NCBI GenBank assembly: GCA_000830295.1
Contig: CP010425.1
Coordinates: forward strand, 1,056,001 to 1,120,000
Length of the DNA stretch: 64,000 nt
Direction of reading: 5' to 3'
DNA from: an archaeon GW2011_AR15
GTDB lineage: Archaea > Nanobdellota > Nanobdellia > Woesearchaeales > GW2011-AR15
Shown: in pieces, positions 39 to 32,483 of the stretch
Layout of the letters: each line of letters starts with the position of its first letter
Position numbering within the stretch: the stretch's first letter is position 1
Made by a program: the position numbers and the translations under genes
The notes under the pieces: model-generated
The model's input: the letters and a program-made list of their open reading frames with translations, nothing else
The model's database searches: none
What the model was told of the DNA's origin: nothing

Positions 39-1418
39 ATGACAAACAAAACCATGCTTACAGATGAATACCAGCTCACAATGATGGCATCATACCTTGA
101 TAATAATATTGATGATAAGGCAACATTTGACATGTTTATCAGAGGGCTTCCTGAAGACTGGGGATACTTTATTGCAAACGGCATAGAAGATGCAATTGAT
201 TATGCAACAAGCATCAAATTTAGTAAAGACGATATTGATTTCCTCAGAAGCCAGGGAAAATACAGTGAAGATTTCCTTGATTTCCTCAGGGGTTTTAGGT
301 TTAATGGTGAGATATATTCTGTTAAAGAGGGAGAAATTGTCTTTCCAAACCAGCCGGTATTAAGAGTAACCGGCAGCAGAACAGAAGCCCAGTTTCTTGA
401 AACTGCCATACTTAATATAATTAATTTCCAGACAATGGTTGCATCAAAGGCAAACAGGGTTGTGAATGCTGCCGGAGAATCAACAGTGCTTGATTTTGGC
501 CTGAGAAGAGCCCAGGGTGAGGACGCGGGGATGGAGGGCGCAAGGGCAGCTTATATTGGCGGTGCTTCAGGCACCAGCAATGTAAAAGCAGGAAAAGAAT
601 ATGGGATTCCAACTGGCGGGACTCAGGCCCACAGCTATGTAATGAGCTTTGATGATGAGGCGGATGCTTTCAGGGCATATGCAAAGACTTTTCCTGACAG
701 GTCTGTCTTCCTTATTGATACATACAATACTCTTGAAGGTGCAGAAAAAGCGGCAATTGTAGCCAAGGAAATGGAAAAGCAGGGGCACAGGCTTGTCGGA
801 GTCAGGCTGGATTCAGGAGACCTTGAAATGCTTTCAAAAGGCGTCAGAGACATATTCAACAGCCAAGGTCTTGGATATGTGAAAATATATGCAAGCAATG
901 ACCTGAATGAATACAAGATTGAAGACCTGGTGAGGAATGGGGCAAAAATAGATGCTTTCGGTGTTGGGACAGAGATGATTACAGCAAAGCCGGTCTCCGC
1001 AATATCCGGAGTCTACAAGCTTGTTGAAGATACAGCAGGCCCAAAGATGAAATTTTCACCGGGAAAGGAAAGCAACCCAGGAAAGAAACAGATTTATAGG
1101 ATAAGTGATGAGAAAGGGACCTTCCTGTATGATGTAATGGCTCTTGAATCTGAAAAAATAGAAGGCAGGTCATTGCTTGAAAAAGTTGTTGAGAACGGAT
1201 ACAGAATAAGCCAGAGAAGAGACCTGAAAGAGATAAGGGAATATGCTCTTGATTCAGTAAGCAGGCTTCCTGACAGCCTGAAGCAGGTCAGAGTTGCAGA
1301 CAAGTATGAGGTAAGAAAATCAGAAGGCCTGACTAGCCTTATAGATGAGCTTGGGGAAAAATATCTCCAAAGCCTTCCTTTTTACAGCGTAGTTCATCCA
1401 ATTTCAATAAATCAATAA
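39..1418 (+). CDS. pncB: Nicotinate phosphoribosyltransferase
   Basis: LTDxYQLTM, DFGLRRAQ, GTQAHS, LIDTY, GVRLDSGD and FGVGT motifs; GGAGG SD upstream. Confidence 0.95.
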   Translation: MTNKTMLTDEYQLTMMASYLDNNIDDKATFDMFIRGLPEDWGYFIANGIEDAIDYATSIKFSKDDIDFLRSQGKYSEDFLDFLRGFRFNGEIYSVKEGEIVFPNQPVLRVTGSRTEAQFLETAILNIINFQTMVASKANRVVNAAGESTVLDFGLRRAQGEDAGMEGARAAYIGGASGTSNVKAGKEYGIPTGGTQAHSYVMSFDDEADAFRAYAKTFPDRSVFLIDTYNTLEGAEKAAIVAKEMEKQGHRLVGVRLDSGDLEMLSKGVRDIFNSQGLGYVKIYASNDLNEYKIEDLVRNGAKIDAFGVGTEMITAKPVSAISGVYKLVEDTAGPKMKFSPGKESNPGKKQIYRISDEKGTFLYDVMALESEKIEGRSLLEKVVENGYRISQRRDLKEIREYALDSVSRLPDSLKQVRVADKYEVRKSEGLTSLIDELGEKYLQSLPFYSVVHPISINQ

Positions 1419-1439
1419 GTGTAAAAAATACAATAATAG

Positions 1440-1964
1440 GTGAAGCAAATGAAAACAACATTGAACAAAGTTGTTAATGATAAAGGATTCAGGAAATATA
1501 CCACACATAAAGCAGAAGCCGGGGATATAATCACTTCTCCTGAGTTTGCTTTTGGGGAATACGGTGTTTTCTACGATGATGATAAGCACCTGAGGCTTGA
1601 CAAGTATAATATCAGTGTAGACGGGCACACAAGAACTCTGGAGGTGCAGTATTCAAACCCTGAGATACCGAGAGGGAAACCTGATGAACTGATAACAATA
1701 GATATTGCCGCGTATGACCCTTCTCGGGGAACGGCAAAATTCCTCGTTGAAGAGGCTTATCTTGGCGGCGGTTCAGGCCCTTGCAGCCATGATCCTTATC
1801 CTGATGGATGGAATGTAAAGGCAAGAAGGCTTTCAGATGATGCGTCATATGATCCAAAAGGCAAACTAATAGATTTCTACCAGAGCGGTTCTTTCACAAA
1901 CAAGGTCAGGGAAGTTACTGTAGTCGGGAAGATGGAGAAAATAATCGAGTGGAGAAAAAAATAG
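1440..1964 (+). CDS. Hypothetical protein within the NAD operon
   Basis: 174-aa co-oriented ORF between pncB and pncA; start may be ATG 1449; no family recognised. Confidence 0.75.
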   Translation: MKQMKTTLNKVVNDKGFRKYTTHKAEAGDIITSPEFAFGEYGVFYDDDKHLRLDKYNISVDGHTRTLEVQYSNPEIPRGKPDELITIDIAAYDPSRGTAKFLVEEAYLGGGSGPCSHDPYPDGWNVKARRLSDDASYDPKGKLIDFYQSGSFTNKVREVTVVGKMEKIIEWRKK

Positions 1965-1980
1965 CAAGGAGGTAAACAAG

Positions 1981-2601
1981 ATGAAAACAATAGCATGGAA
2001 TGTAGATACACAATACGACTTTATGCGTGCTGACGGGAAACTATATGTGCAGGATGCAGAAAAGATTGAGGGAAACCTTGAGAAACTGACAAACCTTTTC
2101 AGAAAAAAAGGGACAGCAATAGTAAATACAGGGGACTGGCATAATGAGCATACTGCTGAAATTTCAGATACACCTGATTTTGTCAATACCTTTCCGGAGC
2201 ACTGCATGCAGAATACACATGGAGCGGATTATGTCGGCGCAACCAAGCCAGCAAATGCGCTCTATGTCGACTGGCAGGATGAAAAGGCTGACCTTGATGC
2301 AATTGCAGGAGCAAAAGAGATTGTAATATACAAGGACATGTTCGATGTCTTTGCAGGAAACCCGCACACTGACAAAATTGTTGATGCACTGGGCCCGGAC
2401 AGGGTAATCGTATATGGTGTTGCAACGAATGTCTGCGTCAATTATGCTGTAAGAGGGCATCTGGAAAGAGGGCTTGAAGTCTATGTCGTAGAGGATGCAA
2501 TAAAAGAGCTCCCAAATATACCTTCACCAGTTGATGGCTGGGTAAAGGCAGGAGCCAGACTGATCAGAACAGAAGATGCAGTTAATTACATCGGAGGTTA
2601 A
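1981..2601 (+). CDS. pncA: Nicotinamidase (isochorismatase family)
   Basis: VDTQYDF, DWH, FPEHC, K, GVATNVCV catalytic motifs; AGGAGGT SD. Confidence 0.9.
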   Translation: MKTIAWNVDTQYDFMRADGKLYVQDAEKIEGNLEKLTNLFRKKGTAIVNTGDWHNEHTAEISDTPDFVNTFPEHCMQNTHGADYVGATKPANALYVDWQDEKADLDAIAGAKEIVIYKDMFDVFAGNPHTDKIVDALGPDRVIVYGVATNVCVNYAVRGHLERGLEVYVVEDAIKELPNIPSPVDGWVKAGARLIRTEDAVNYIGG

Positions 2602-2602
2602 A

Positions 2603-3535
2603 ATGCTCGAACAAAAAATACTGCTGGCACAAATGGATCCTGAAACTGTAAGCGATGAGATAGGCGACTTTGTCATACAACAGGTAAAGGAGGGGGATTA
2701 TATAGGATGTGTTATAGGGCTATCAGGAGGCATTGATTCCACAACCACAGCTACACTGATAAAAAGAGCGTTTGACAGGCATAATCTCAGAAGAAAACGG
2801 AACAAGCTTGAGATTGTGGGGTATATCATGCCTTCAGATATCAATAACCCTGAAGATGCGAGAGACGGCATAAGGGTCGCAGAAAACCTTGGGGTAAGAT
2901 ATGAGGTTCTGGATATAAACGGCGTTGTAGAAGCATACAGGACAACAAATCCCGAAGCATTTGATGTAGAATACCACAAAGGAAACCTTATGTCTAGGAT
3001 TAGGGGGAACATCCTTTCCACAAAAGCAGCTACAGAAAGGAAACTTGTTGCCGGCACTGGAAACTGGGATGAAGATTTCGGCCTGGGATACTATACTTTA
3101 TTCGGCGACGGGGCTGTACACATGAGCCCAATCGGCAATCTTCCAAAGAGGCTTGTAAGAGAGATGGCAAAATATCTTGGCATTGATTCCTATTTTGTCA
3201 ACAGGGAGCCTACTGCAGGGCTTGAGCCCGGCCAGACAGACTTTAAGGATCTGGGCTACAGCTATGACACGGCTGAATTAATTATAAGAGGCCTGGAGCT
3301 TGGCATTGACCCACGGGACTTGGCTGATTATTCCCAGGTAAAAAAACAGATTGAACCAGAAATCAGCTATAAGGGAGCCAAATTCACTTCTGCATATGAG
3401 ATTATAGAAGACATAATGCAGAGACACATTGTTGCAGAGGCTAAGGCAGGTATTGTCAGCCCTCCTGCAGCGCCTGTATCCCTATACTACGGCAAAGAGA
3501 TCTGGAGGACAATAAAAAAGGTAGAGAGGGAATAA
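2603..3535 (+). CDS. nadE: NH3-dependent NAD+ synthetase
   Basis: GLSGGIDS, GNLMSRIR, GYYTLFGDG, PTAGL..GQTD motifs; start moved to ATG 2603 after GGAGG. Confidence 0.93.
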   Translation: MLEQKILLAQMDPETVSDEIGDFVIQQVKEGDYIGCVIGLSGGIDSTTTATLIKRAFDRHNLRRKRNKLEIVGYIMPSDINNPEDARDGIRVAENLGVRYEVLDINGVVEAYRTTNPEAFDVEYHKGNLMSRIRGNILSTKAATERKLVAGTGNWDEDFGLGYYTLFGDGAVHMSPIGNLPKRLVREMAKYLGIDSYFVNREPTAGLEPGQTDFKDLGYSYDTAELIIRGLELGIDPRDLADYSQVKKQIEPEISYKGAKFTSAYEIIEDIMQRHIVAEAKAGIVSPPAAPVSLYYGKEIWRTIKKVERE

Positions 3536-3536
3536 A

Positions 3537-3986
3537 ATGACAAAACCAACACAGCTCTATGTAGCTACAACCCTCATAATAAAGCATGAGGATAAGTACG
3601 TGCTTATAGAAAGAAAAAACCCGCCGTACGGCTTTGCCCTTCCCGGAGGCTTTCTCGAGCCAAACCTGACTGGGGTAAAAAATGGAGAAAAAGAAGCCAA
3701 AGAAGAGACGAATCTAGAGATCCTGATTCATAACCCCTATACTCCAATAGTCTTCTCATCTCCTGATAGAGATCCCAGAAGCAGAGTAGTTGATCTTATT
3801 TACATAGCTACAGGAACGGGCAAGCTGGCTGCCGGAGATGATGCAAAGGCAGTCCATGAATTCTGGCCTGATGAGATAGAGAAAATGTTTGGCAAGAACA
3901 AATTTGCCTTTGACCATGAAGACATACTAAAACACTATTTTTCAAGGAGGATGTTCTATGACTATTCCGGCAACGATAGAAGGTAG
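3537..3986 (+). CDS. Nudix hydrolase, ADP-ribose pyrophosphatase-like
   Basis: ALPGGF..KEAKEETNL (divergent Nudix box), PDRDPR, AGDDA, AFDH. Confidence 0.85.
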   Translation: MTKPTQLYVATTLIIKHEDKYVLIERKNPPYGFALPGGFLEPNLTGVKNGEKEAKEETNLEILIHNPYTPIVFSSPDRDPRSRVVDLIYIATGTGKLAAGDDAKAVHEFWPDEIEKMFGKNKFAFDHEDILKHYFSRRMFYDYSGNDRR

Positions 3987-4602
3987 AGTAGGGACAATCG
4001 CGAGGTTTAAGCCTCTCCATATGGGGGCCCAGCTTATGCTTGAAACCATATGCTCACAGGCAGGTGAAGTCATAATCGGAATCGGAAGCTCAAATAAGTA
4101 TGATGTAAGAAATCCTTTTACTGCTGAGGAAACAGAGGAGATGATACGCAGGGCTCTCTCAGGATATGATAACTATTCTGTTGTCCACGTCCCTGATTTT
4201 GCCCACCTCGGCCCTGAATATCAGGATGGCCAGGCATGGAGGAAGAATGTTCTCAGGTTGTTTGGAGAGCTGGATTATTTCATAGTGGAGAACGGCTATG
4301 TAAAAAAACTGCTTGAAGAGGATTATAAAATTGCAAGACCTTCCAGCCTTATTCCTAAAGAGAGCCAGATAATGGTCAGCGGGACAATGGTCAGGGTTGA
4401 AATGGCAAAAAATGGCGACTGGAAAAGTCTTGTTTCAAAAGAAGTAGCGGATTATCTGACTGAGCCCGGCAAAGCTGGAAGCTATGAAAATCTTGTTGAC
4501 AGATTTAGAAAAGAATTCGGGCTTGAAACTCTGGCCAGCATGGCAACTGAGGGGATCTATGCCAGGGATGCTGAAACAGAATACAGGAGGACACTGGTGT
4601 AA
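3958..4602 (+). CDS. Nicotinamide/nicotinate-nucleotide adenylyltransferase (NadM-like)
   Basis: RFKPLHMGA (HxGH variant), IGIGSS, RNPFTAEE, SGTMVR. Confidence 0.85.
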   Translation: MTIPATIEGRVGTIARFKPLHMGAQLMLETICSQAGEVIIGIGSSNKYDVRNPFTAEETEEMIRRALSGYDNYSVVHVPDFAHLGPEYQDGQAWRKNVLRLFGELDYFIVENGYVKKLLEEDYKIARPSSLIPKESQIMVSGTMVRVEMAKNGDWKSLVSKEVADYLTEPGKAGSYENLVDRFRKEFGLETLASMATEGIYARDAETEYRRTLV

Positions 4603-4603
4603 A

Positions 4604-5383
4604 ATGGCAAAAATAGGGAATTATGAAATCATAAAGGAAATAGCAATTGACAGCAAAGGGGAACCTGTTGGCGGAATGGGAAGGATATTCCAGGCAAAGC
4701 ATATCTATCTGGATGAGCTTGCATGCATAAAGCAGAACAAGGCAAAAGAGTTCGAGGATGTGCTTTACAACGAGGCAAAAATACTCTGGAGGCTCAACGA
4801 ACACCATTCAATACCTACTGTAAAGGATTTCTTTCCTGTTGCTGATTCATATGTCATGGTAATGGATTACATAGACGGCCCTACCCTTGACTCTCTTATT
4901 GAGAAGAATTCAAGAATGCATCCTGAAGATGCATCCTGGATTACCGAACGGCTTCTTTCAGCACTGCAGTATTCTACTTACAAGGGGATTGTTCATGGCG
5001 ACATAAAACCTGGGAACCTTTTCATTGAAGCAAAACATCATGATGTAAAACTCATAGACTGGGGCCTTGCCTCATACAAGCCCAAAAGTACCAGCAAACA
5101 GATGGGATATACCCCGAGATATGTAGCTCCTGAGATAAGGGATGGCAAGTCGCCTATTCCTGAATCCGATGTCTATGGTACGGGAATGATCATGCTCTAT
5201 GCATTGGGAGGTGATGTTGACAGCAAGGAGTTCAGGGACGAGACTCCTGAGCCGATAAAAGAATTCTGCAGCAGGCTAATAAGATATGACCCTATGCAGA
5301 GACCAAGCCTGGAAAAGGAGAACTTGGCAAAAGCTTTGTCAGACATAAGAGAACAGGTCTTTGGAAGAAGACACATGAAATAA
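4604..5383 (+). CDS. Hanks-type Ser/Thr protein kinase
   Basis: GGMGRIF, IK, HGDIKPGN, DWG, APE, SDVYG motifs; true start ATG 4604. Confidence 0.92.
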   Translation: MAKIGNYEIIKEIAIDSKGEPVGGMGRIFQAKHIYLDELACIKQNKAKEFEDVLYNEAKILWRLNEHHSIPTVKDFFPVADSYVMVMDYIDGPTLDSLIEKNSRMHPEDASWITERLLSALQYSTYKGIVHGDIKPGNLFIEAKHHDVKLIDWGLASYKPKSTSKQMGYTPRYVAPEIRDGKSPIPESDVYGTGMIMLYALGGDVDSKEFRDETPEPIKEFCSRLIRYDPMQRPSLEKENLAKALSDIREQVFGRRHMK

Positions 5384-5399
5384 TATGAGGTTGATAAAA

Positions 5400-6362
5400 A
5401 TGTATTCGTGGAGCGGAGATACAACAAACTGGAGAGGAGCAGGGGCGTATAAATTTGACAAAAACCCCTACAAAGCCGATCCGAGAGCAAAAAAGGCGAG
5501 GACATATTCCTCAAGCAGCACGCCAAACATGAAGATGGTGGACCCTAAAGATAAAGAAATTGAATCCTACAGTGCAAACCCAATACTTGTAGGCGTGGAT
5601 GTTACTGGCTCAATGGCCAGCTGGCCTGGTGAGATATTTGACAGGCTGCCGCTTTTTGCAACAACACTTGCGCAGTACAGGGATGACGCGGAGTTTTGCT
5701 TTGCTGCAATAGGGGATGCAACCTGCGACAGCTATCCATTGCAGGTAAATAAGTTTGGGAAAGGGATTGACCTTGAGGATCACATAAAGGCGCTTGGCGC
5801 TGAAGGAGGCGGAGGAGGACAGATAAAAGAAAGCTATGAGTTATTCGGCTATTACATGCTGAACAATGTCAAAACTCCAAATGCACTTTCGCCATTCCTT
5901 TTCATCCTGGGAGACGAAATGTTCTACCCTGCTGTGAATCCTGATCAGGTTGAGCATTATATCGGTTCAACTTTGCAGTCAGGAATAGATTCTCTTGGGC
6001 TATGGGCTGCCTTGTCGCAGAAATACAATATGTTCTTCCTGCAGAAGCCTTATGGCCATGGGGGAGAGGCAAGTGTAGATGCTGAAGTGAGGAAAGCCTG
6101 GGAAAAGGCCCTGGGAAAAGAAAGAGTGATACAGCTTCCCAGCATGGAAAGGACTGTTGACATAATGATGGGGATTGTAGCCAAAAGCTGGGGAAAATAT
6201 GATGACTTTAGCCTAAGCCTTGGGGCCAGGCAGCCAGATGATGAGCAGACCAAAGTCCATATGTCAATAAGGTATCTTCCGGACGGCACAACTGAACATT
6301 CGGTTATGGATGCTAAAGGAAGCACAAAAACCAAGTCACTGCTCGATCTTGGCAGCAAATAA
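5400..6362 (+). CDS. von Willebrand factor A (vWA) domain protein
   Basis: MIDAS DVTGSM, GGGGG..ESYE, FILGDE; GAGGTTGA SD before ATG 5400. Confidence 0.85.
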   Translation: MYSWSGDTTNWRGAGAYKFDKNPYKADPRAKKARTYSSSSTPNMKMVDPKDKEIESYSANPILVGVDVTGSMASWPGEIFDRLPLFATTLAQYRDDAEFCFAAIGDATCDSYPLQVNKFGKGIDLEDHIKALGAEGGGGGQIKESYELFGYYMLNNVKTPNALSPFLFILGDEMFYPAVNPDQVEHYIGSTLQSGIDSLGLWAALSQKYNMFFLQKPYGHGGEASVDAEVRKAWEKALGKERVIQLPSMERTVDIMMGIVAKSWGKYDDFSLSLGARQPDDEQTKVHMSIRYLPDGTTEHSVMDAKGSTKTKSLLDLGSK

Positions 6363-6391
6363 ATTTTTTATTTTTATTTTTGGAGGGAAAA

Positions 6392-7294
6392 ATGAAAACA
6401 AAAGCCATTGTAACAATGCCACCATACGCCGGATACTTAAGCGATGTTGTGAAGCACCCCATTGTCTCAGGCATAAGGCTGAATACTGTAATGCCAACCA
6501 AGGAAAAGCTAGAAGACATGCTTAAAAGGCTTAATAATGCCACCGGAGATAAAGATCTGTGGATTGACCTTAAAGGCAGACAGCTCAGGACAAAGGGATA
6601 CTGGGTTCCGCCATTCACTGAAATACAGCTGACTCACACAATAAAGGTCGATACACCAGCAACTGCTGTTTTCAGTGACGGGAAGGAGTACGCAACAATA
6701 CTGGAGGTTGACGGGAACCGCCTGATAATGCAGGAAGGCCCAAGAAGGGTTGTCGGCCCCGGGGAATCCCTTAACATAAGGGGTAAAAACCTCTCAATTG
6801 ACGGCTATTTTACAGAGACGGATTTTAGGTATATTGAGGCAGGACAAAAGACAGGAACCAAAAAATACATGCTTTCTTTTGTAGAGTCAAAAACAGACAT
6901 AGATTTATTAAAAAAATTATATTCCGAAGCTGAGATTATTGCAAAAATCGAGTCAAAGAAAGGGCTTGATTATGTAATGAGAAGCTGGAACAATGATGCA
7001 AGGCTGATGGCAGCCAGGGGAGACCTGTATCTTGAGCTGGATATGCCTCATGACATAATAAAAGCTTCAGAGTCCATAATCCGGAAAGACAAGGATGCAA
7101 TTGTCGCCTCAAGGATATTTGACTCATTGTCCTATCAGGAGGAAATAAGCAGCCAGGATATCGGCGATGTTGACAGCCTTATGAGGATGGGATACAGGAA
7201 TTTCATGTTCGGTGATTACATATGCATGCACAAGGAATCCATAATGAGCGGCCTGAACCTGCTTTACAGGATGGCGGAGAGCTATGAAAAATGA
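6392..7294 (+). CDS. Pyruvate-kinase-like TIM-barrel protein lacking the C domain
   Basis: IRLN, IDLKG, SFVES, IIAKIES, MAARGDL motifs; only about 300 aa. Confidence 0.8.
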   Translation: MKTKAIVTMPPYAGYLSDVVKHPIVSGIRLNTVMPTKEKLEDMLKRLNNATGDKDLWIDLKGRQLRTKGYWVPPFTEIQLTHTIKVDTPATAVFSDGKEYATILEVDGNRLIMQEGPRRVVGPGESLNIRGKNLSIDGYFTETDFRYIEAGQKTGTKKYMLSFVESKTDIDLLKKLYSEAEIIAKIESKKGLDYVMRSWNNDARLMAARGDLYLELDMPHDIIKASESIIRKDKDAIVASRIFDSLSYQEEISSQDIGDVDSLMRMGYRNFMFGDYICMHKESIMSGLNLLYRMAESYEK

Positions 7295-8160
7295 ATAATG
7301 TACTCGTAGTGTATAAGAAAAGCACTTTTGAGCTTTATGGCAATTCTCCTGACGGGAAAACCCGGGAGTATGTCCGGGATAACCTTGAATATCTTAAAAA
7401 AAGCCATGATTCGCAGCAGAAAACTCTTGAGACTGTAGCAGACGAGCTTAACCAAAGAAACATAAAAAACCACGTAATATACAGAGCTGATTTAAAAGAA
7501 TTAAGCGGAGAGCTGAAGAAACTAAACGGATATGATCTTATTGTGAGCGTAGGAGGGGACGGCACCTTATTGGAGGTGTCCCATTATGTGACAGATATTC
7601 CTGTATTGGGAGTTAATTCCGACAGCAGCGGAAGCACGGGATATTTCAGTATGGCAAATTCAGGGAATTTTGGCTATTTAATTGATAATTTCAGTAATAC
7701 AAAAATGACAAGACTGAACAGGCTTGAAATAATGCTAAACAGGGAGATATTGCCTGAGCTGGTGCTCAATGACATATTAATAGCCCATTCAAATCCTGCC
7801 GCAAATACGAGGTTTAAGCTATATATGAACAATCAGGAAGAGATGTTCAGAAACAGCAGCGGTGTGCTTATATGCACTCCCGCAGGGTCAACTGCATTCA
7901 TGTATCAGGAAAACGGCAATATCATGCCTATTGATTTTGGGTATATGCAGTATCACATAAGAAGCAACAGGAAAGAGCACGATATGTTCAGATTTGCTGG
8001 CAAACTGGAGATAGAATCACTGACAAGGGAAGGTGGGATATGGATAGATGGAGAGCACCTGAGGTACGATTTTGCTCTTGGAGACAAAATTAAGATATAT
8101 ATGGGCCAGCCGCTCCAGCTGGTCGGTGATTTAGAGGAAAAGAGAAAACACTTTAAATAA
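7291..8160 (+). CDS. nadK: NAD(+)/NADH kinase
   Basis: GGDGTLL, PVLGVN, LND, TPAGSTA, IDG motifs. Confidence 0.9.
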   Translation: MNNVLVVYKKSTFELYGNSPDGKTREYVRDNLEYLKKSHDSQQKTLETVADELNQRNIKNHVIYRADLKELSGELKKLNGYDLIVSVGGDGTLLEVSHYVTDIPVLGVNSDSSGSTGYFSMANSGNFGYLIDNFSNTKMTRLNRLEIMLNREILPELVLNDILIAHSNPAANTRFKLYMNNQEEMFRNSSGVLICTPAGSTAFMYQENGNIMPIDFGYMQYHIRSNRKEHDMFRFAGKLEIESLTREGGIWIDGEHLRYDFALGDKIKIYMGQPLQLVGDLEEKRKHFK

Positions 8161-8165
8161 AGGCG

Positions 8166-8723
8166 TTGTTCTCAGTTAAAATGGATTTGAGAAAATTCAG
8201 CAGGAAAGAAGTAATCTCTTTCATAATTTTATCTATAATTGCAGTCCTGATCCTTGCCACTTTCAGGGGCGCAAGGGCAACCCTATTTGTTCTTGGATTC
8301 ATCATTTTCAGCGTTATCCTGACATTATACAAGAGGTATTTCTATATCCCCATAGAATTTGAGATTATATCTCTGGGAATAGTGCTCTGCTCTGTTGAGT
8401 ACGGCCTGGCTGCAGGGCTCATAGTTGCATTAGTCGGCGGGATAGCATACACTATATACTGCACGAGCTTCAGTCCTTTTACTGTGCCCATGCTGTTCGG
8501 CTACAGCCTGATGGCTTTTCTTGCCTCTTTCTTCCCGCAGGCAAACATAACCTACCTTGGGATTGCAGTCAATGTAATCCACAACATTTTTGTGTTCTCA
8601 ATATACCATTTTGCATTTAGATACGACCCATTTAAGAATATCATGTACAGCGGGACAAACATACTGATAAATATCCTGCTGTTCTCTAATGTTGCACCCT
8701 TCTTATCTGCAATAATGGGATAA
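8166..8723 (+). CDS. Integral membrane protein (about 6 TM; possibly ECF S-component-like)
   Basis: Hydrophobic 185-aa ORF directly after nadK; start may be ATG 8181. Confidence 0.7.
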   Translation: MFSVKMDLRKFSRKEVISFIILSIIAVLILATFRGARATLFVLGFIIFSVILTLYKRYFYIPIEFEIISLGIVLCSVEYGLAAGLIVALVGGIAYTIYCTSFSPFTVPMLFGYSLMAFLASFFPQANITYLGIAVNVIHNIFVFSIYHFAFRYDPFKNIMYSGTNILINILLFSNVAPFLSAIMG

Positions 8724-9857
8724 TCAGATGGATTCTATTATCTTTAGGAATGCAGCAGCTATTTTCTCCTCTTTTTCTCGCGGGTACTTTGTTTCTGCCA
8801 GTGTCTTTCCTTCAAGAGGCTTGTCTGAGCCCACACCGGCAAAGAAATAGTTTATGCTGCCAAGATTTGGATAATTGCTATGGTATCCATGATCAAGGGA
8901 AGCCATAACTGACCATTCCATATCTAGAAAATCCCCCCCTGCTTTGAGACCATGCTCCAGGCTGGATTTGCTCTGTTTCAGCACAGAAGTCATGTTTATT
9001 GTTGTGCCTGCATGAACCTCTTCCGCAATGCTTTTCCTGAATATCCCAGAGACTTTTTTGTTGAACTCAAGCTGGTTGTATATTGGGTATGTCCTGAAAT
9101 CCCCTTTTACAACCTTCATTTCGTCAAGGGCTGCTATGGGAATGCAGATATCACCAACTTTAAGATCGGGATTCAATATCCCGATTTTGCCGAAATGAAA
9201 TATGTTCAGGTCAACCCCTAAAAAGTATGAGCTTGTCATGGAATAAATCTGGGAAAGTATGTTCCTGGCCTGATCAGCAAAAATATAGTCAAAACATATG
9301 ACCAGCTTATTATTTAGCTTCAGGATTTTGTAATTAAGGTATTCATTAGTATTCTCCCTTATGGCTTTAATGCCATTGAACTTAAGGGATCTGTGCGGGC
9401 CAAGCATAACAACTATCTCCTTGGATTTCACAATATCTTTAGGATTGATGCCCTTAAATATCTCAAGGACAAGCGAAAATGCAAATTCCTCGAATCTTTT
9501 GCCCGCCATTGCAGCATCATCTTTGTAATTGTTTACCTTAAGCGTGAGCTGCCTTCCAAGGATTTCGCTTAGGCTTTCCACAAGGTCAGTGTCCCTGAAC
9601 TTTCGCATGACTCCCCTTGTGTTTACAATATGCAGTATCCCTTTTTTGCTGTCCCAGAAATGGGGTTCTGTTGACTTCTCTGGGAAGTACTTTACCAGTC
9701 CTTTAATCTCAGTTTCCAGCTCTGAAGTTTTCCAGGCATTGTGCATAACAACTTCGCTGAGCTTCTTCAGCTGGTCATCTCTGACACGAGAGTCAGGATG
9801 GAGTTTCCTGTCAAAAGTATATGTCTCCCTCTGCTTCTGGACCATAACCCTATCCAT
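8724..9857 (-). CDS. Hypothetical protein with C-terminal nucleoside phosphorylase/AMP nucleosidase-like fold
   Basis: GKIGIL..LKVGDICIP, GTTIN, LDME, GSD pattern resembles the PNP/UDP superfamily. Confidence 0.6.
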   Translation of the reverse strand: MDRVMVQKQRETYTFDRKLHPDSRVRDDQLKKLSEVVMHNAWKTSELETEIKGLVKYFPEKSTEPHFWDSKKGILHIVNTRGVMRKFRDTDLVESLSEILGRQLTLKVNNYKDDAAMAGKRFEEFAFSLVLEIFKGINPKDIVKSKEIVVMLGPHRSLKFNGIKAIRENTNEYLNYKILKLNNKLVICFDYIFADQARNILSQIYSMTSSYFLGVDLNIFHFGKIGILNPDLKVGDICIPIAALDEMKVVKGDFRTYPIYNQLEFNKKVSGIFRKSIAEEVHAGTTINMTSVLKQSKSSLEHGLKAGGDFLDMEWSVMASLDHGYHSNYPNLGSINYFFAGVGSDKPLEGKTLAETKYPREKEEKIAAAFLKIIESI

Positions 9858-15854: not shown

Positions 15855-18188
15855 ATGAAAAAAGAGATGGCAATTGATTCTATAAAAAAATATGTCAGGG
15901 CTGCCAACTATATCTCTGCTGCCCAGATTTACCTCCGGGATAATTTCCTGCTTGAAAAGCCGCTGGCATTTGAGCATATAAAGCCAAGGCTGCTGGGGCA
16001 CTGGGGAACATGCCCGGGAATCAATTTTGTTTATGCTAATCTAAATTACTTAATAAAAAAGCACAGGCAGAGCATGCTGTTTGTCCTCGGTCCTGGGCAT
16101 GGCTTTCCTGCATTACAGGCAAACCTGTTTATAGAGGGGACCTTGGCCAAGTATTATCCAAGAGCAAAACCCAACCTGAAAGGGCTGATATATCTCGGCA
16201 AAGAATTCAGCTGGCCCTACGGCTTTCCAAGCCACAGCAACCCCGGAACCCCCGGGGTAATTCTGGAAGGCGGAGAGCTGGGATATTCCCTGAGCACTTC
16301 TTACGGTGCAATTCTCGACAATCCTGACCTTATAGTTGCCTGTCTTGTCGGTGATGGAGAGGCTGAAACCGGGCCGACTGCAACTGCCTGGCATATCAAC
16401 AAATTCATAGATCCTGCTGTCAACGGCGCTGTGCTGCCGATACTCCATCTCAACGGCTACAAGATATCAGGGCCGACAATATTCGGAAGGATGAGCAACA
16501 AGGAGCTGGAAAGCCTGTTTTACGGTTATGGATATGATCCTGTGATTGTTGATGAAAAAGAAGGGAACATATACGGCAGGATGATTGATGTGCTGGAAAA
16601 CAGCTACAGGAAAATAAAGGGAATACAGAAGCATGCCAGAGAAAAAAAAGAGATTGCATCTCCAAGATTCCCAATGATTATTTTAAGGACTCCGAAGGGA
16701 TGGACAGGCATCAAAAGGCTGAATGGGGAAAAAATAGAGGATAACTGCCTTTCACACCAGGTTGTCGGGAAGGAAGCAAAGACAAGCGGGCACGAGCTGA
16801 AGAGCATTGAAGCATGGCTGAAGTCATACAATTTCACAGAGCTGTTTGGCAGAGAGGATGGATTTGCCAAAGAGATTACAGGCATAGTCCCCAAACCTGA
16901 TTTTTGCATGGGACAGAACAGGCATGCTTTTGGAGGAGAAGTATACCAAAAGCTCAGGCTGCCAAGCCCGGCAAAATTTTCTGAAGACTCTTCACTTCCC
17001 GGGATTATAGGGAGCAGCAGCATGAGAAGGGCAGGAGCTTACCTTAATGATGTTTTCAGGCTGAATAAGCATAATTTCAGGCTCTTCTCGCCTGATGAAA
17101 CATATTCAAACAAGCTGGATGAGGTTTTCTGCACAACCTCAAGGTCTTTTGTCTGGCCTGTGAAAAAATGGGACAAGGACATTTCAAGAAACGGAAGAGT
17201 GATAGAGATGCTCAGCGAGCATACATTACAGGGCTTGTGCCAAGGTTACATACTGACAGGAAGGCATGCTGTCTTTGCCTCTTATGAAGCATTTGTAGAG
17301 ATTGTAAGCAGCATGGCAAGCCAGTATGAGAAATTCCTGAAAGCATCAAAGGACTTCCCATGGAGAAAGCCAATCGCTTCCTTAAATTACATCCTGACTT
17401 CCTCAGGATGGAGGCAGGAGCACAACGGATTTTCCCATCAGAACCCTAAATTCATCAGCGGCTTCCTGGAGAAAGCAGGCTGCCTAGGCAGGGTCTATTT
17501 TCCTCCTGACGGAAGCAGCACATTGGTAGTATTAAAGCAATGTCTGGAATCAAGGAACAGGATAAATGTCATTGTTGCAGGAAAAACTGTCGAACCGAGA
17601 TGGCTTACCCTCACCAAAGCCAAAGAAGAGCTTAAGGCCGGAATGATGGTGTGGGATTTCTGCAGCGATAGCAATCCCGATATTGTGTTTGGCGGAATAG
17701 GGGATTACCTTACAAAAGAGTGCATTGCAGCTATCTCCCTGCTAAAGGAATACGCACCTGAGATAAAAGTCAGGTTTGTAAATGTCATGGAAGTCACTGC
17801 ATTGGGATTTGGAGGAGGCTCTGCTGACTTTAACAGCTACTTTACAAAGGACAAGCCGGTGATATTCAATTACCATGGATACAGGAGCGATATTGAAGCA
17901 TTATTGCTGGAATATGATAATGTTAAGAGGTTCAGGGTGCATGGCTACACTGAAAGCGGATCAACCACAACTCCCTTCGATATGCACATAAGAAACAAGA
18001 CAAGCAGGTACCATCTGGTAATTGAAACATTAAGTATTTTATCAGCGAAAAAAATTGTAACTTCTGCCAAAGCCGAAAAACTAGCTGTGCTTTTTGAAGA
18101 AAAGATAAGGAAACACTCTGATTTCATAAGGGAATTTGGTGATGACCCTGATGAGATTAAATACTGGCGATGGAAAGGAAAACACTGA
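15855..18188 (+). CDS. xfp: Phosphoketolase (X5P/F6P)
   Basis: LLGHWGTCPG, GPGHG, EGGELGY, GDGEAETG, LHLNGYKI, SPDET, QEHNGFSHQ. Confidence 0.95.
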   Translation: MKKEMAIDSIKKYVRAANYISAAQIYLRDNFLLEKPLAFEHIKPRLLGHWGTCPGINFVYANLNYLIKKHRQSMLFVLGPGHGFPALQANLFIEGTLAKYYPRAKPNLKGLIYLGKEFSWPYGFPSHSNPGTPGVILEGGELGYSLSTSYGAILDNPDLIVACLVGDGEAETGPTATAWHINKFIDPAVNGAVLPILHLNGYKISGPTIFGRMSNKELESLFYGYGYDPVIVDEKEGNIYGRMIDVLENSYRKIKGIQKHAREKKEIASPRFPMIILRTPKGWTGIKRLNGEKIEDNCLSHQVVGKEAKTSGHELKSIEAWLKSYNFTELFGREDGFAKEITGIVPKPDFCMGQNRHAFGGEVYQKLRLPSPAKFSEDSSLPGIIGSSSMRRAGAYLNDVFRLNKHNFRLFSPDETYSNKLDEVFCTTSRSFVWPVKKWDKDISRNGRVIEMLSEHTLQGLCQGYILTGRHAVFASYEAFVEIVSSMASQYEKFLKASKDFPWRKPIASLNYILTSSGWRQEHNGFSHQNPKFISGFLEKAGCLGRVYFPPDGSSTLVVLKQCLESRNRINVIVAGKTVEPRWLTLTKAKEELKAGMMVWDFCSDSNPDIVFGGIGDYLTKECIAAISLLKEYAPEIKVRFVNVMEVTALGFGGGSADFNSYFTKDKPVIFNYHGYRSDIEALLLEYDNVKRFRVHGYTESGSTTTPFDMHIRNKTSRYHLVIETLSILSAKKIVTSAKAEKLAVLFEEKIRKHSDFIREFGDDPDEIKYWRWKGKH

Positions 18189-19315
18189 TTGTCAATATAG
18201 GAAGCACTTCCAAAAAGTATGCTCTTTATTCTGATAAGGAACTAATAAGAATTACCCTAAACATAGACCTGGATTGCGGTTATAAGGCGAATGGCAAGGT
18301 CTCAAAATTAAAAGCCGGCAGAAAAGAATACAATGATTCAGCAAAATACGTTCTTAATCTACTGATGAAAAAAGAGCTGATAGCATCAAAAAAAGAAATT
18401 GAGAAAATTGCTGTGCGTGTTGTTTCCCCTGGGAATTTCTTCCAGAAAAACAGGCCAATAAATAGAGAATACATCACAAAGCTGGAGGAATCAAGGAGCA
18501 TGGCTCCGCTCCATATTGAACCTGTGCTTGGAGAGCTGAAGAAAATATTAAAAGAATTCAGGGGAGCCAGGATAATCGCTGTTTCAGACAGCGCTTTCCA
18601 TTATACTCTGGGGTCTGCTGCGAAATACTATGCAATCCCAAAAAAATACTCTGATTTATTCGGCATCTACAGGTATGGATACCATGGGATTTCAGCAAGC
18701 TCTGTCATCAGGCATCTGAAATCATCTTCCAAACTGCCGGAGAGGATTATAATCTGCCACCTGGGAGGAGGCTGCAGCATAACTGCAGTAAAGAACGGAA
18801 AAAGCATAGATACCTCAATGGGCTTCAGCCCCCTGGAAGGCCTCTACATGGCATCCAGATCCGGGGACATTGACCCGTCTATTGTCTTCTATCTCCTGAA
18901 AAAATTTTCTGCTGAAAACCTCTTAAAAATGCTGAATAGTGAATCTGGACTGCTTGGTGTGTCAGGAAAGAGCTCAAGCGTAAAAGAGCTTATTGATTTA
19001 AAGGACAGCAGATCAAAATTAGCTATGGACATGTATGCATACAAGATAAAGAAGTATATAGGCTCGTATTATGCCGCGCTCAACGGGTTGGATGTGCTTG
19101 TATTTACAGGGGCAGTCGGCTCTGGTTCTGTGAAGATGAGAAGGAAAATCTGCCAGGATTTGGCCGGGCTTGGCATTAGTCTTGATACAGCAAAAAATTC
19201 AAGGAATAAAAAAGGCTTTATCCATGCTTCTGGCTCCAAGGCAAAAATATTCATCATGGAGACAGATGAAATTGAAGAGATGTACAGGATAATAACCCAA
19301 TATCCAAAAGTTTAA
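18170..19315 (+). CDS. ackA: Acetate kinase
   Basis: NIGSTSKK, APLH, DSAFH, RYGYHG, HLGGGCS, DTSMGFSPLEG, RSGDIDP; overlaps xfp. Confidence 0.93.
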   Translation: MERKTLIVNIGSTSKKYALYSDKELIRITLNIDLDCGYKANGKVSKLKAGRKEYNDSAKYVLNLLMKKELIASKKEIEKIAVRVVSPGNFFQKNRPINREYITKLEESRSMAPLHIEPVLGELKKILKEFRGARIIAVSDSAFHYTLGSAAKYYAIPKKYSDLFGIYRYGYHGISASSVIRHLKSSSKLPERIIICHLGGGCSITAVKNGKSIDTSMGFSPLEGLYMASRSGDIDPSIVFYLLKKFSAENLLKMLNSESGLLGVSGKSSSVKELIDLKDSRSKLAMDMYAYKIKKYIGSYYAALNGLDVLVFTGAVGSGSVKMRRKICQDLAGLGISLDTAKNSRNKKGFIHASGSKAKIFIMETDEIEEMYRIITQYPKV

Positions 19316-19334
19316 AAATCCGACATAGTTCACA

Positions 19335-19418
19335 TTCTCAGAGGGAAATCAGGGTGCGACTCCCTGGCTGTGCCGCAACCGTAAAGCCGGAAAACCAAAT
19401 TCCTTCGTGCAAGGGTGA
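19335..19418 (+). promoter_or_regulatory. Minimal cobalamin riboswitch-like RNA
   Basis: AGGGAA, stem CAGGG-TGCGACT-CCCTG, CTGTGCCGCAACCGTAA, B12-box-like AGCCGGAAAACC, then a hairpin overlapping the GGGTGA SD. Confidence 0.75.
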
Positions 19419-24284: not shown

Positions 24285-24286
24285 AC

Positions 24287-24373
24287 TGCGTCCGCCGGGA
24301 TTCGAACCCGGACACCCGGCTGTCTTTGCATAGGCTTGGAAGGCCGGAGTCATAGCCATTAGACCACAGACGC
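24287..24373 (-). tRNA. tRNA-Gly(TCC) with 15-nt intron (24322-24336)
   Basis: GCGTCTG/CGGACGC acceptor stem, CCGGC/GCCGG anticodon stem, GTTCGAATC. Confidence 0.93.
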
Positions 24374-24488
24374 ACAGGAGGTATAGAAAAATAAATCGTT
24401 TATTAATCTTATTGAAAATCACAGCCAAATCTGGTGTGAATTTTTATTATCATAATGTTTATAAACTGACTGAATTTTCTTAGGCTCA

Positions 24489-32360: not shown

Positions 32361-32483
32361 CCCTCCTTAGCTCAGCGGCTAGAGCGTTCGGCTGTAGATG
32401 CTTATCTGACATGGTGCTAACCAAAGGATGAAAATAAGCCAGCCGTGACCGAAAGGTCCCCGGTTCGAATCTGGGAGGAGGGA
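32361..32483 (+). tRNA. tRNA-Tyr(GTA) with 50-nt intron (32398-32447)
   Basis: CCCTCCT/GGAGGG acceptor stem (C1-G72), TTCGG/CCGAA anticodon stem, GTTCGAATC. Confidence 0.92.

Follow-up and report, generated by a model that had tools for sequence, protein, structure and literature searches.

The 64,000-nucleotide stretch of contig CP010425.1 from the archaeon GW2011_AR15 that was analyzed here (the window) carries, at positions 39–8160, ten tightly packed open reading frames (ORFs) on the plus strand, with gaps or overlaps of no more than 29 nt, that read as an NAD(P) salvage operon with an embedded cassette. The cassette encodes a Hanks-type Ser/Thr kinase, a protein of the von Willebrand A (vWA) fold, and a pyruvate kinase homolog (PK-like), and it directly follows the gene for an adenylyltransferase of the NadM type (NMNAT). 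We propose that the vWA and PK-like pair may be a functional partner of the NMNAT step, a mechanism that, taken as a whole, we rate as evenly balanced between right and wrong. The pair would not be a passenger but would work with the adenylyltransferase step, because it is kept with one NMNAT subfamily across DPANN archaea and across bacterial phyla whose searched carriers retain canonical NadD and pyruvate kinase. The window genome (G000) is a single contig of 1.158 Mb, 96.8% complete, and the nearest relatives of the window's proteins are found in metagenome bins of the Woesearchaeota and Nanoarchaeota, which identifies the host as a small archaeon of the DPANN type.

Conservation of the NMNAT, vWA, and PK-like Genes

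Loci anchored on the vWA gene were collected by a scan of one genome per species, which identified 345 relatives. The best 80 of the 345 were kept, comprising 34 archaeal loci and 46 bacterial loci from the Planctomycetota, Chloroflexota, Acidobacteriota, Myxococcota, and Clostridia. Window proteins were then searched against the six-frame ORFs of the 80 loci, and the denominators given here are the loci with sufficient flank. Every testable locus has nmnat directly upstream of vWA, 30/30 archaeal and 41/41 bacterial (71/71 in total); under a strict distance rule the bacterial count is 38, and hits seen in the locus similarity search for L048, L051, and L071 bring it to 41. Stop-to-stop frames overlap in these three loci and in L023 and L033, all five of which were counted by inspection rather than by the distance rule. 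PK-like is downstream of vWA in all 32 archaeal loci and in 38 of 43 bacterial loci. The kinase gene, directly upstream of vWA in 30/31 archaeal loci, occupies that position in none of 44 bacterial loci. The nadE gene is upstream in 25 of 27 archaeal loci and downstream in 24 of 37 bacterial loci, and nadK is downstream in 18/28 archaeal and 0/37 bacterial loci. Gene order in the bacteria is nmnat, vWA, PK-like, and nadE, and no further gene family is conserved across the 46 bacterial loci. A complete Anaerolineales chromosome shows this order clearly, with a divergent Nudix gene followed by nmnat, vWA, PK-like, and a glutamine-type nadE. Two of the five Myxococcales-type loci that lack PK-like (L053 and L061) encode, upstream of nmnat, a large kinase joined in one protein to a periplasmic-binding domain. 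What is conserved is a core of NMNAT, vWA, and PK-like; the kinase does not belong to the NAD-linked core. An original prediction, made from the sequence of the window alone, had placed kinase, vWA, and PK-like together in one module of the NAD operon. The gene neighborhoods uphold it for vWA and PK-like, which accompany NAD genes in DPANN archaea and several bacterial phyla, but not for the kinase, which is missing from that position in the bacteria.

Five of the bacterial carriers were searched as whole genomes. Canonical NadD was present in 5/5, a second strong NadE in 4/5, and canonical pyruvate kinase in 5/5 (465–553 bits). The four-gene set of these bacteria is therefore an additional route, and PK-like is not their glycolytic enzyme.

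Distribution within the window's order was assessed with 121 genomes drawn evenly from it. A relative of the vWA gene is encoded in 14 of these genomes, some NMNAT in 61, and the NMNAT subfamily found in the operon in 11 (166–271 bits, compared with no more than 111 bits for the rest). Seven of the 11 genomes with this subfamily have a vWA gene 1–2 kb downstream on the same contig, and three of the other four have the same NAD operon without the cassette: nmnat and nadK directly adjoin in G115, an inosine-uridine nucleoside hydrolase gene fills the slot in G027, and genes for NadA and an ADP-ribosylglycohydrolase do so in G074. Genes added after PK-like in other archaeal loci encode ADP-ribosylglycohydrolase (11 loci), an NDT-like protein (6), and NadA (5). 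The cassette sits in a variable accessory slot.

The operon NMNAT scores under the cut-offs of the archaeal NMNAT models (NF002243, Table 1; 70 versus 181 bits for the other) and belongs to a distinct NadM-type subfamily with a conserved C-terminal tail. In an alignment of the subfamily, HxG(A/G) is found in most DPANN members and HxGH in the bacterial members, and the window protein has HMGA. It is the sole NMNAT candidate in the window genome, the other cytidylyltransferase-like gene being a heptose-pathway enzyme, and the operon would consequently be the cell's own, housekeeping NAD route. The C-terminal tail is common to all members of the subfamily, and it was read as absent from canonical archaeal NMNAT by length, not by alignment. 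As a docking peptide for the vWA protein the tail was rejected, there being no specific support for such a role and the tail being retained in operons that have no cassette.

The PK-like protein is 304 aa long. In its AlphaFold2 model (pLDDT 95) the barrel ends the protein and the C-terminal domain is absent. Foldseek matched the model to pyruvate kinases at E 1e-19 (TM 0.76–0.79), and a PDB profile search matched PykF at E 2.7e-18 with the RLN, DxKGxxxR, KIE, ARGDL.E, and A(S/T) motifs aligned and invariant; the catalytic motifs are conserved in 27 sequences. Compared with PykF, the phosphoryl-transfer residues are retained, and the K+-site serine and its neighbors differ. Homologs of ~300 aa without the C domain (e.g., P0122, P0126, and P0142) are often named "pyruvate kinase" by their sources. 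A canonical pyruvate kinase was not found in the window genome. The genome does encode enolase and PPDK-type enzymes, which can supply phosphoenolpyruvate (PEP), and PEP would thus be available as a donor.

The vWA protein was recognized by its structure. Searches with its sequence found no Pfam or NCBIfam family at E ≤ 0.01, no curated VWA model, and no PADLOC match; none of 120 listed homologs has a precomputed Pfam domain, and a PDB sequence-profile search with the family found nothing below E 0.5. The AlphaFold2 model (pLDDT 84) gave 166 PDB matches in Foldseek at E ≤ 1e-3, with integrin beta-I and von Willebrand A domains among the matches listed, and VIA-align gave a Z of 14.8 to integrin beta-I domains, with a root-mean-square deviation (rmsd) of 3.2–3.7 over 192–209 residues. 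The vWA assignment made in the original prediction is accordingly correct, by structure only (Foldseek and VIA-align) and not by sequence models. Residues D72, T74, S76, and G176-D177-E178 are invariant across 20 homologs, and the DxTxS and GDE motifs, a naming that is ours, would form an intact metal site of the metal ion–dependent adhesion site (MIDAS) type, i.e., a DxSxS with a Thr-for-Ser variant. Relatives of the protein form 756 clusters at 90% identity, and at 50% identity they number 1770 representatives at E ≤ 1e-3 and 1357 at E ≤ 1e-10. Longer or fused forms were found in none of 3488 candidates, which is weak evidence.

Similarity of the kinase to its relatives begins near the ATG at 4604, one base past the nmnat stop codon, and its translation contains the Gly loop, the "ACIK" lysine, and the HGD, DWG, and APE motifs. 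Among PADLOC models, the kinases match generic kinase models only (mad6 and PD-T4-6), and vWA, PK-like, and NMNAT match none. The conserved Thr/Ser in an R-T/S-Y motif at the vWA N terminus was considered as the kinase target and rejected, since RTY also occurs in 36 of 43 bacterial vWA proteins that have no kinase directly upstream. Co-folding of NMNAT, PK-like, and vWA gave a median score of 0.07 against a mark of 0.32, a result classed as "no answer" that is evidence neither for nor against a complex.

Paralogous Trios and Phage Relatives of the vWA Family

The window genome encodes a second trio (G000:C1:46780-49750, minus strand) consisting of a J-domain kinase, a vWA protein, and a PK-like protein, followed by a PhoU-domain gene. 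Its proteins are 44% (kinase), 40% (vWA), and 33% (PK-like) identical to those of the operon. A proviral origin of this trio was rejected, as its neighbors are core genes encoding ribonucleotide reductase, S7, S12, a NusA-like KH protein, and Spt5. The same trio lies beside a homolog of the PhoU-domain gene (AbrB/PhoU-type) in G009, G077, and G087, the PhoU domain of the G009 and G087 genes being confirmed with Pfam. A trio of this second type is also present in G007. Close relatives are carried by six IMG/VR contigs of 53–485 kb, and a seventh encodes the J-domain kinase and vWA with no PK-like match; the kinases on these contigs match at E 1e-85 to 1e-140. Neighbors of the IMG/VR trios include genes for a LAGLIDADG homing endonuclease, a Thg1-like protein, and a class II tRNA synthetase.

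More distant relatives of the vWA protein are encoded in 219 phage records, of which 200 are from Mycobacterium, 10 from Rhizobium, and 6 from Vibrio phages. In Mycobacterium phage Catera (L165, locus 3757-7473) a Ser/Thr kinase (gp249), vWA (gp250), gp251, and an adenylosuccinate synthetase-like protein (PurA-like; gp252) are encoded in succession, and IMG/VR loci L124, L126, and L129 are further examples of the phage triad of kinase, vWA, and PurA-like genes. Across 50 viral loci the vWA cluster was found in 46, a PurA-like gene just downstream in 41, a kinase gene just upstream in 26, and PK-like in 6. All four PurA-like examples that were scanned match PF00709. In Rhizobium phage RHph_TM30 (L166, locus 939-8272) the vWA and PurA-like genes are preceded by genes for a HAD hydrolase, a ComF-like PRTase_3 protein, and a Nudix protein, the last annotated "cytidyltransferase" in its record.

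A tree of 133 vWA sequences was constructed with FastTree and midpoint rooted, and we claim no direction from it. A branch with support 100 separates the bacterial NAD-linked group from the rest, and another with support 100 does so for the phage PurA-linked group. The archaeal NAD-linked group needs two changes, and second-type sequences from viruses and cells are intermixed. What the loci have in common is a vWA gene beside a gene for an enzyme of adenine-nucleotide metabolism that transfers phosphoryl groups, frequently accompanied by a Hanks-type kinase.

A wider role for this unnamed vWA family is conceivable, although on balance we doubt it. A new class of cassettes would center on the family, each combining the vWA protein with an adenine-nucleotide enzyme, either a pyruvate kinase without its C domain or an adenylosuccinate synthetase homolog, and optionally with a Hanks-type kinase; they would restore or commandeer adenylate and NAD pools. 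Phages would use such cassettes during infection, and in DPANN archaea and several bacterial phyla they would have become linked to a dedicated set of NMNAT and NadE for inducible NAD recovery. The phage carriers behind this idea are ~200 Mycobacterium phage records and a few jumbo phages. If it is true, the notion of countering depletion in the original prediction would be right in spirit, and the module would be common to viruses and cells.

The Operon, Its Boundaries, and Its Control

ORFs were assigned to families by scans with Pfam, NCBIfam, and PADLOC models, comparing bits with the curated cut-offs (Table 1). By these scans the PncA-like protein, PncB, NadM-type NMNAT, NadE, and NadK, together with the Nudix protein, make up an enzyme set predicted to rebuild NAD(P) from nicotinamide or nicotinate. 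This is how the original prediction had read the operon, and all ten genes that it listed, in a single orientation, were recovered. Individual assignments differ in firmness. The PncA-like protein matches the nicotinamidase equivalog NF008623 weakly (48 bits versus a cut-off of 174), and its homolog adjoins pncB in many archaeal loci. NadK scores no more than 66 bits with the NCBIfam NAD kinase models, under their cut-offs. The top NCBIfam matches of the Nudix ORF are the Nudix halves of bifunctional NadM-Nudix (NMNAT/Nudix) proteins. The orphan ORF that follows pncB has no homolog in the 80 related loci, and its best Atlas feature score was 0.76 with TM <0.5; the membrane ORF that follows nadK likewise has no homolog in related loci.

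Table 1. Genes of the window's NAD(P) operon and genes found in the accessory slot of related archaeal operons
Feature	Position	Strand	Basis
pncB, nicotinate phosphoribosyltransferase	39..1418	+	NF006696 539.4 bits vs 503; TIGR01513 515 vs 297; Pfam NAPRTase_N, NAPRTase, NAPRTase_C
Orphan ORF, 174 aa	1440..1964	+	No Pfam, NCBIfam, or PADLOC match
pncA-like isochorismatase-family hydrolase, probable nicotinamidase	1981..2601	+	PF00857 67 bits vs 27
nadE, NH3-type NAD synthetase	2576..3535	+	PF02540 177 bits; TIGR00552 161 vs 64
Nudix hydrolase, ADP-ribose pyrophosphatase-like	3537..3986	+	PF00293 35 bits vs 21
NadM-type NMNAT	3958..4602	+	Cytidylyltransferase-like 24 bits vs 21; NF002243 83 vs 127
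Hanks-type Ser/Thr kinase	4604..5383 (probable start 4604; frame open from 4484)	+	Pkinase 123 bits vs 32
vWA-fold protein, unnamed family	5385..6362 (probable start 5400)	+	Structure only
Pyruvate kinase homolog, A and B domains	6380..7294 (probable start 6392)	+	PF00224 43 bits vs 30; TIGR01064 64 vs 306
nadK, NAD kinase	7291..8160	+	PF01513 N-terminal domain 41 bits vs 25.5
Membrane ORF, 185 aa, last gene of the unit	8166..8723	+	No family match
Archaeal slot between nmnat or PK-like and nadK: variously ADP-ribosylglycohydrolase, NDT-like, NadA, inosine-uridine nucleoside hydrolase	L008 12453-13508; L114 8375-9577; L021 12749-13198; L115 7419-8294		

The operon had been suspected to extend upstream of window base 1, and it does: a 124-aa ORF without a family abuts pncB on the upstream side, and a TATA-like run followed by the palindrome GTGT-N7-ACACTAAG lies ~390–430 nt before base 1. 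The same arrangement of TATA box and palindrome precedes an NrtR-like gene 1.9 kb farther upstream. The palindrome, with its flank and beside a TATA box, occurs at exactly two sites in the 1.158 Mb, those of the NrtR-like gene and the NAD operon. The NrtR-like protein matches the model "ADPR responsive transcriptional repressor NtrR" at E 8e-44 (150 bits, cut-off 400). In bacteria, NrtR responds to ADP-ribose, a product of NAD cleavage, as the name of the NCBIfam model also has it. At the other end, the membrane ORF begins 5 nt past nadK, and the strand switches beyond it. These features fit a single transcription unit of about 12 genes that would run from a putative NrtR-type operator to base 8723, because the spacing is tight and there is one operator-bearing promoter. 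Separate transcription units, which would have counted against the original prediction, are not indicated by this arrangement.

A 377-aa gene at 8724-9857 (minus strand) converges on the operon; its matches, to the phosphorylase superfamily (PNP_UDP_1) and DUF6909, are weak. Its homologs lie on the opposite strand directly beside nadK in L006, L017, L018, L114, and L115, and farther downstream in L013. Elsewhere in the window, an Rfam match to the AdoCbl-II riboswitch (19326-19402, plus strand; 40 bits, gathering score 36.5) lies just 3′ of ORF 18170-19315 and is possibly due to chance. Two long tRNA genes, presumably intron bearing, are found at 32361-32483 (plus strand, 123 nt), which was detected by Rfam only and not by ARAGORN, and at 24286-24374 (minus strand, 89 nt).

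Possible Role of the Cassette and Comparison with Known Systems

PncB, NMNAT, NadE, and NadK each consume ATP. The proposed partnership with the NMNAT step would have PK-like use PEP to phosphorylate ADP or a related nucleotide, thereby feeding the ATP-consuming steps of resynthesis, although we consider ATP supply by PK-like specifically to be doubtful. The vWA protein would hold or gate PK-like, and perhaps NMNAT, through its metal site, and in the archaeal and viral versions the kinase would set the state of the vWA/PK-like/NMNAT assembly. The whole unit would be switched on when ADP-ribose relieves the NrtR-like repressor.

Several observations weigh against this proposal. Because the loci were all found through vWA, and because many of them are closely related, they do not amount to independent trials, and their counts overstate independent support. 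The cassette is dispensable for salvage as such, because related operons run without it. Five bacterial loci, all Myxococcales-type, lack PK-like; L061 has in that place an FAD-dependent aromatic hydroxylase, a homolog of which is present in the four others. The last His of HxGH is replaced in DPANN NMNAT, so that even its NMNAT activity is not certain. No NAD gene lies beside the second-type trios of G000, G009, G077, G087, and G007, and the third gene of the phage cassette is PurA-like rather than PK-like. As the trio exists without NAD genes both in cells, beside an AbrB/PhoU-type gene, and on viral contigs, the function of the cassette is therefore not NAD-specific.

Other explanations of the cassette were weighed against the same evidence. 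The original prediction had proposed a phosphorylation-regulated system of NAD recovery that, by analogy with NAD reconstitution in phages, would counter NADases or ADP-ribosylating effectors of viruses, competitors, or the host. An operator of the NrtR type before the operon would suit such a system, given that the bacterial repressor senses ADP-ribose, as would the ADP-ribosylglycohydrolase genes in the same slot of 11 archaeal loci and G074, the patchy distribution (14/121 genomes of the order), the duplication of housekeeping NadD (5/5) and NadE (4/5) by the bacterial set, and the prevalence of the vWA family and its kinase partner in phages. We nevertheless regard it as unlikely: no effector, NADase, or defense gene was found beside the operon or among its conserved neighbors, the window genome yielded no match to a SIR2 or ADP-ribosylglycohydrolase family, and vWA, PK-like, and NMNAT are without a PADLOC match. 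Furthermore, the operon holds the cell's sole NMNAT candidate, which indicates housekeeping, and the phage relatives of vWA adjoin PurA-like genes, not NAD genes.

The bacterial operon, which has neither a phosphoribosyltransferase nor any other conserved neighbor, would gain an entry substrate if PK-like were not an ATP-regenerating enzyme but a kinase that uses PEP or ATP to phosphorylate some other compound, such as nicotinate or nicotinamide riboside, with PK-like, NMNAT, and NadE forming a complete three-step route from riboside to NAD and vWA acting as a subunit. PK-like has kept its phosphoryl-transfer residues, its K+-site serine and neighboring residues are unlike those of PykF, and some archaeal operons have a nucleoside hydrolase or NDT-like gene in the corresponding slot, all of which is compatible with a riboside substrate. 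The archaeal operon, however, already has PncB for production of nicotinate mononucleotide, the PK-like paralogs beside PhoU-type genes or on viral contigs have no NMNAT partner, and no precedent was found in the pyruvate kinase family. A riboside kinase is consequently improbable in our estimation.

We give little credence to the trio being a generic mobile signaling or chaperone cassette, exchanged between DPANN archaea and viruses, that has landed in a permissive slot and is unrelated to NAD. Mobility is suggested by the second trio in the same genome away from NAD genes, by the near relatives on IMG/VR contigs of 53–485 kb (E down to 1e-140) beside homing endonuclease, Thg1-like, and class II tRNA synthetase genes, by the interleaving of viral and cellular second-type vWA sequences in the tree, by the variability of the slot, and by the J domain of the second-type kinases. 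Yet the NAD-linked vWA genes form groups of their own (bacterial branch support 100; two changes in the archaea), and chance insertion does not account for an nmnat gene directly upstream in 71/71 testable loci from two domains. That PK-like is a plain glycolytic pyruvate kinase whose position in the operon is meaningless, as the source names of many homologs and the presence of enolase without a canonical pyruvate kinase in the window genome might suggest, is highly improbable in view of its score far below the equivalog cut-off (64 versus 306 bits), its missing C domain, the existence of two paralogs in the genome, each inside a trio, the PPDK-type enzymes that cover the PEP–pyruvate step in the window genome, and the canonical pyruvate kinase (465–553 bits) of all five bacterial carriers searched.

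If the vWA and PK-like pair does act on the NMNAT step, current pathway maps lack an accessory layer of NAD salvage in many uncultured archaea and in several phyla of bacteria. The naming of PK-like homologs as "pyruvate kinase" may credit Woesearchaeota with a glycolytic step that the gene does not prove. The vWA family is without a curated model, and its carriers among the phages of Mycobacterium smegmatis offer an easy experimental entry. Literature searches found no published description of either the NAD-linked or the phage PurA-linked cassette, a result on which supplementary gene-neighborhood tables could bear. Phage NAD salvage by NadV and NadM is treated in part of PMC9503650, and neither cassette is described in the accessible portions of that article, of PMC7824862, or of bioRxiv 10.1101/2025.10.22.683976. 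The operon is of a known kind; the cassette embedded in it is real and conserved, a variant that seems not to have been described before and that has relatives in phages.

Rodionov and colleagues reportedly described, in 2008, bacterial NAD salvage operons under NrtR control (pncA-pncB, nadM or nadV, nadE). The window's operon shares with those regulons PncB, the PncA-like protein, NadE, NadM-type NMNAT, and Nudix, as well as a nearby gene for a putative Nudix-type repressor and a palindrome common to both promoters; it differs in its archaeal host, in a site that abuts the TATA box, and in the presence of NadK and the embedded kinase, vWA, and PK-like genes. As in bifunctional NadM-Nudix, both domain types adjoin, and NadM-Nudix proteins are the top NCBIfam matches of both genes. 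Here, in contrast, the pair is split into separate genes, with Nudix preceding NMNAT; the latter has a conserved C-terminal tail, and HxG(A/G) stands for HxGH in most DPANN members of its subfamily. PK-like has the A barrel, the inserted B cap, and the catalytic motifs of E. coli PykF (PDB 1pky/4yng), but at ~300 residues it is without the C-terminal allosteric and tetramerization domain, scores far under the equivalog cut-off, is always paired with a vWA gene, and coexists with the canonical enzyme in the bacterial genomes searched.

The TerY-P triad consists of the vWA protein TerY, a PP2C phosphatase, and a Ser/Thr kinase. A Hanks-type kinase gene directly adjoins a vWA gene in both systems, and the original prediction had drawn on this likeness. 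The analogy fails, as a phosphatase family was found neither among the operon genes nor among their conserved neighbors; in addition, the vWA protein has no Pfam VWA match and the third partner is a nucleotide enzyme. In Sulfolobus, the vWA protein ArnB, with ArnA, is controlled by Hanks-type kinases and acts in motility. ArnB (PDB 8s05) is the closest structure of an archaeal vWA protein in a kinase-linked setting (VIA-align Z 12.4, rmsd 3.1, 166 residues), whereas here an FHA or zinc-ribbon partner is missing and the setting is one of metabolism, not motility.

NAD reconstitution in phages proceeds through NARP2, composed of Nampt and Nmnat, or NARP1, composed of the ADP-ribose pyrophosphate synthetase Adps and the nicotinamide ADP-ribose transferase Namat. 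Like these pathways, the cassette-bearing set places an extra NMNAT-containing unit beside the housekeeping route, forming a second set in the bacterial carriers searched. It differs from NARP2 in having no Nampt/NadV: the sole phosphoribosyltransferase of the operon passes nicotinate-specific cut-offs, and none is conserved in the bacterial operon. It also stands apart from the phage pathways through its own phage relatives, in which the vWA gene adjoins kinase and PurA-like genes instead of NAD genes.

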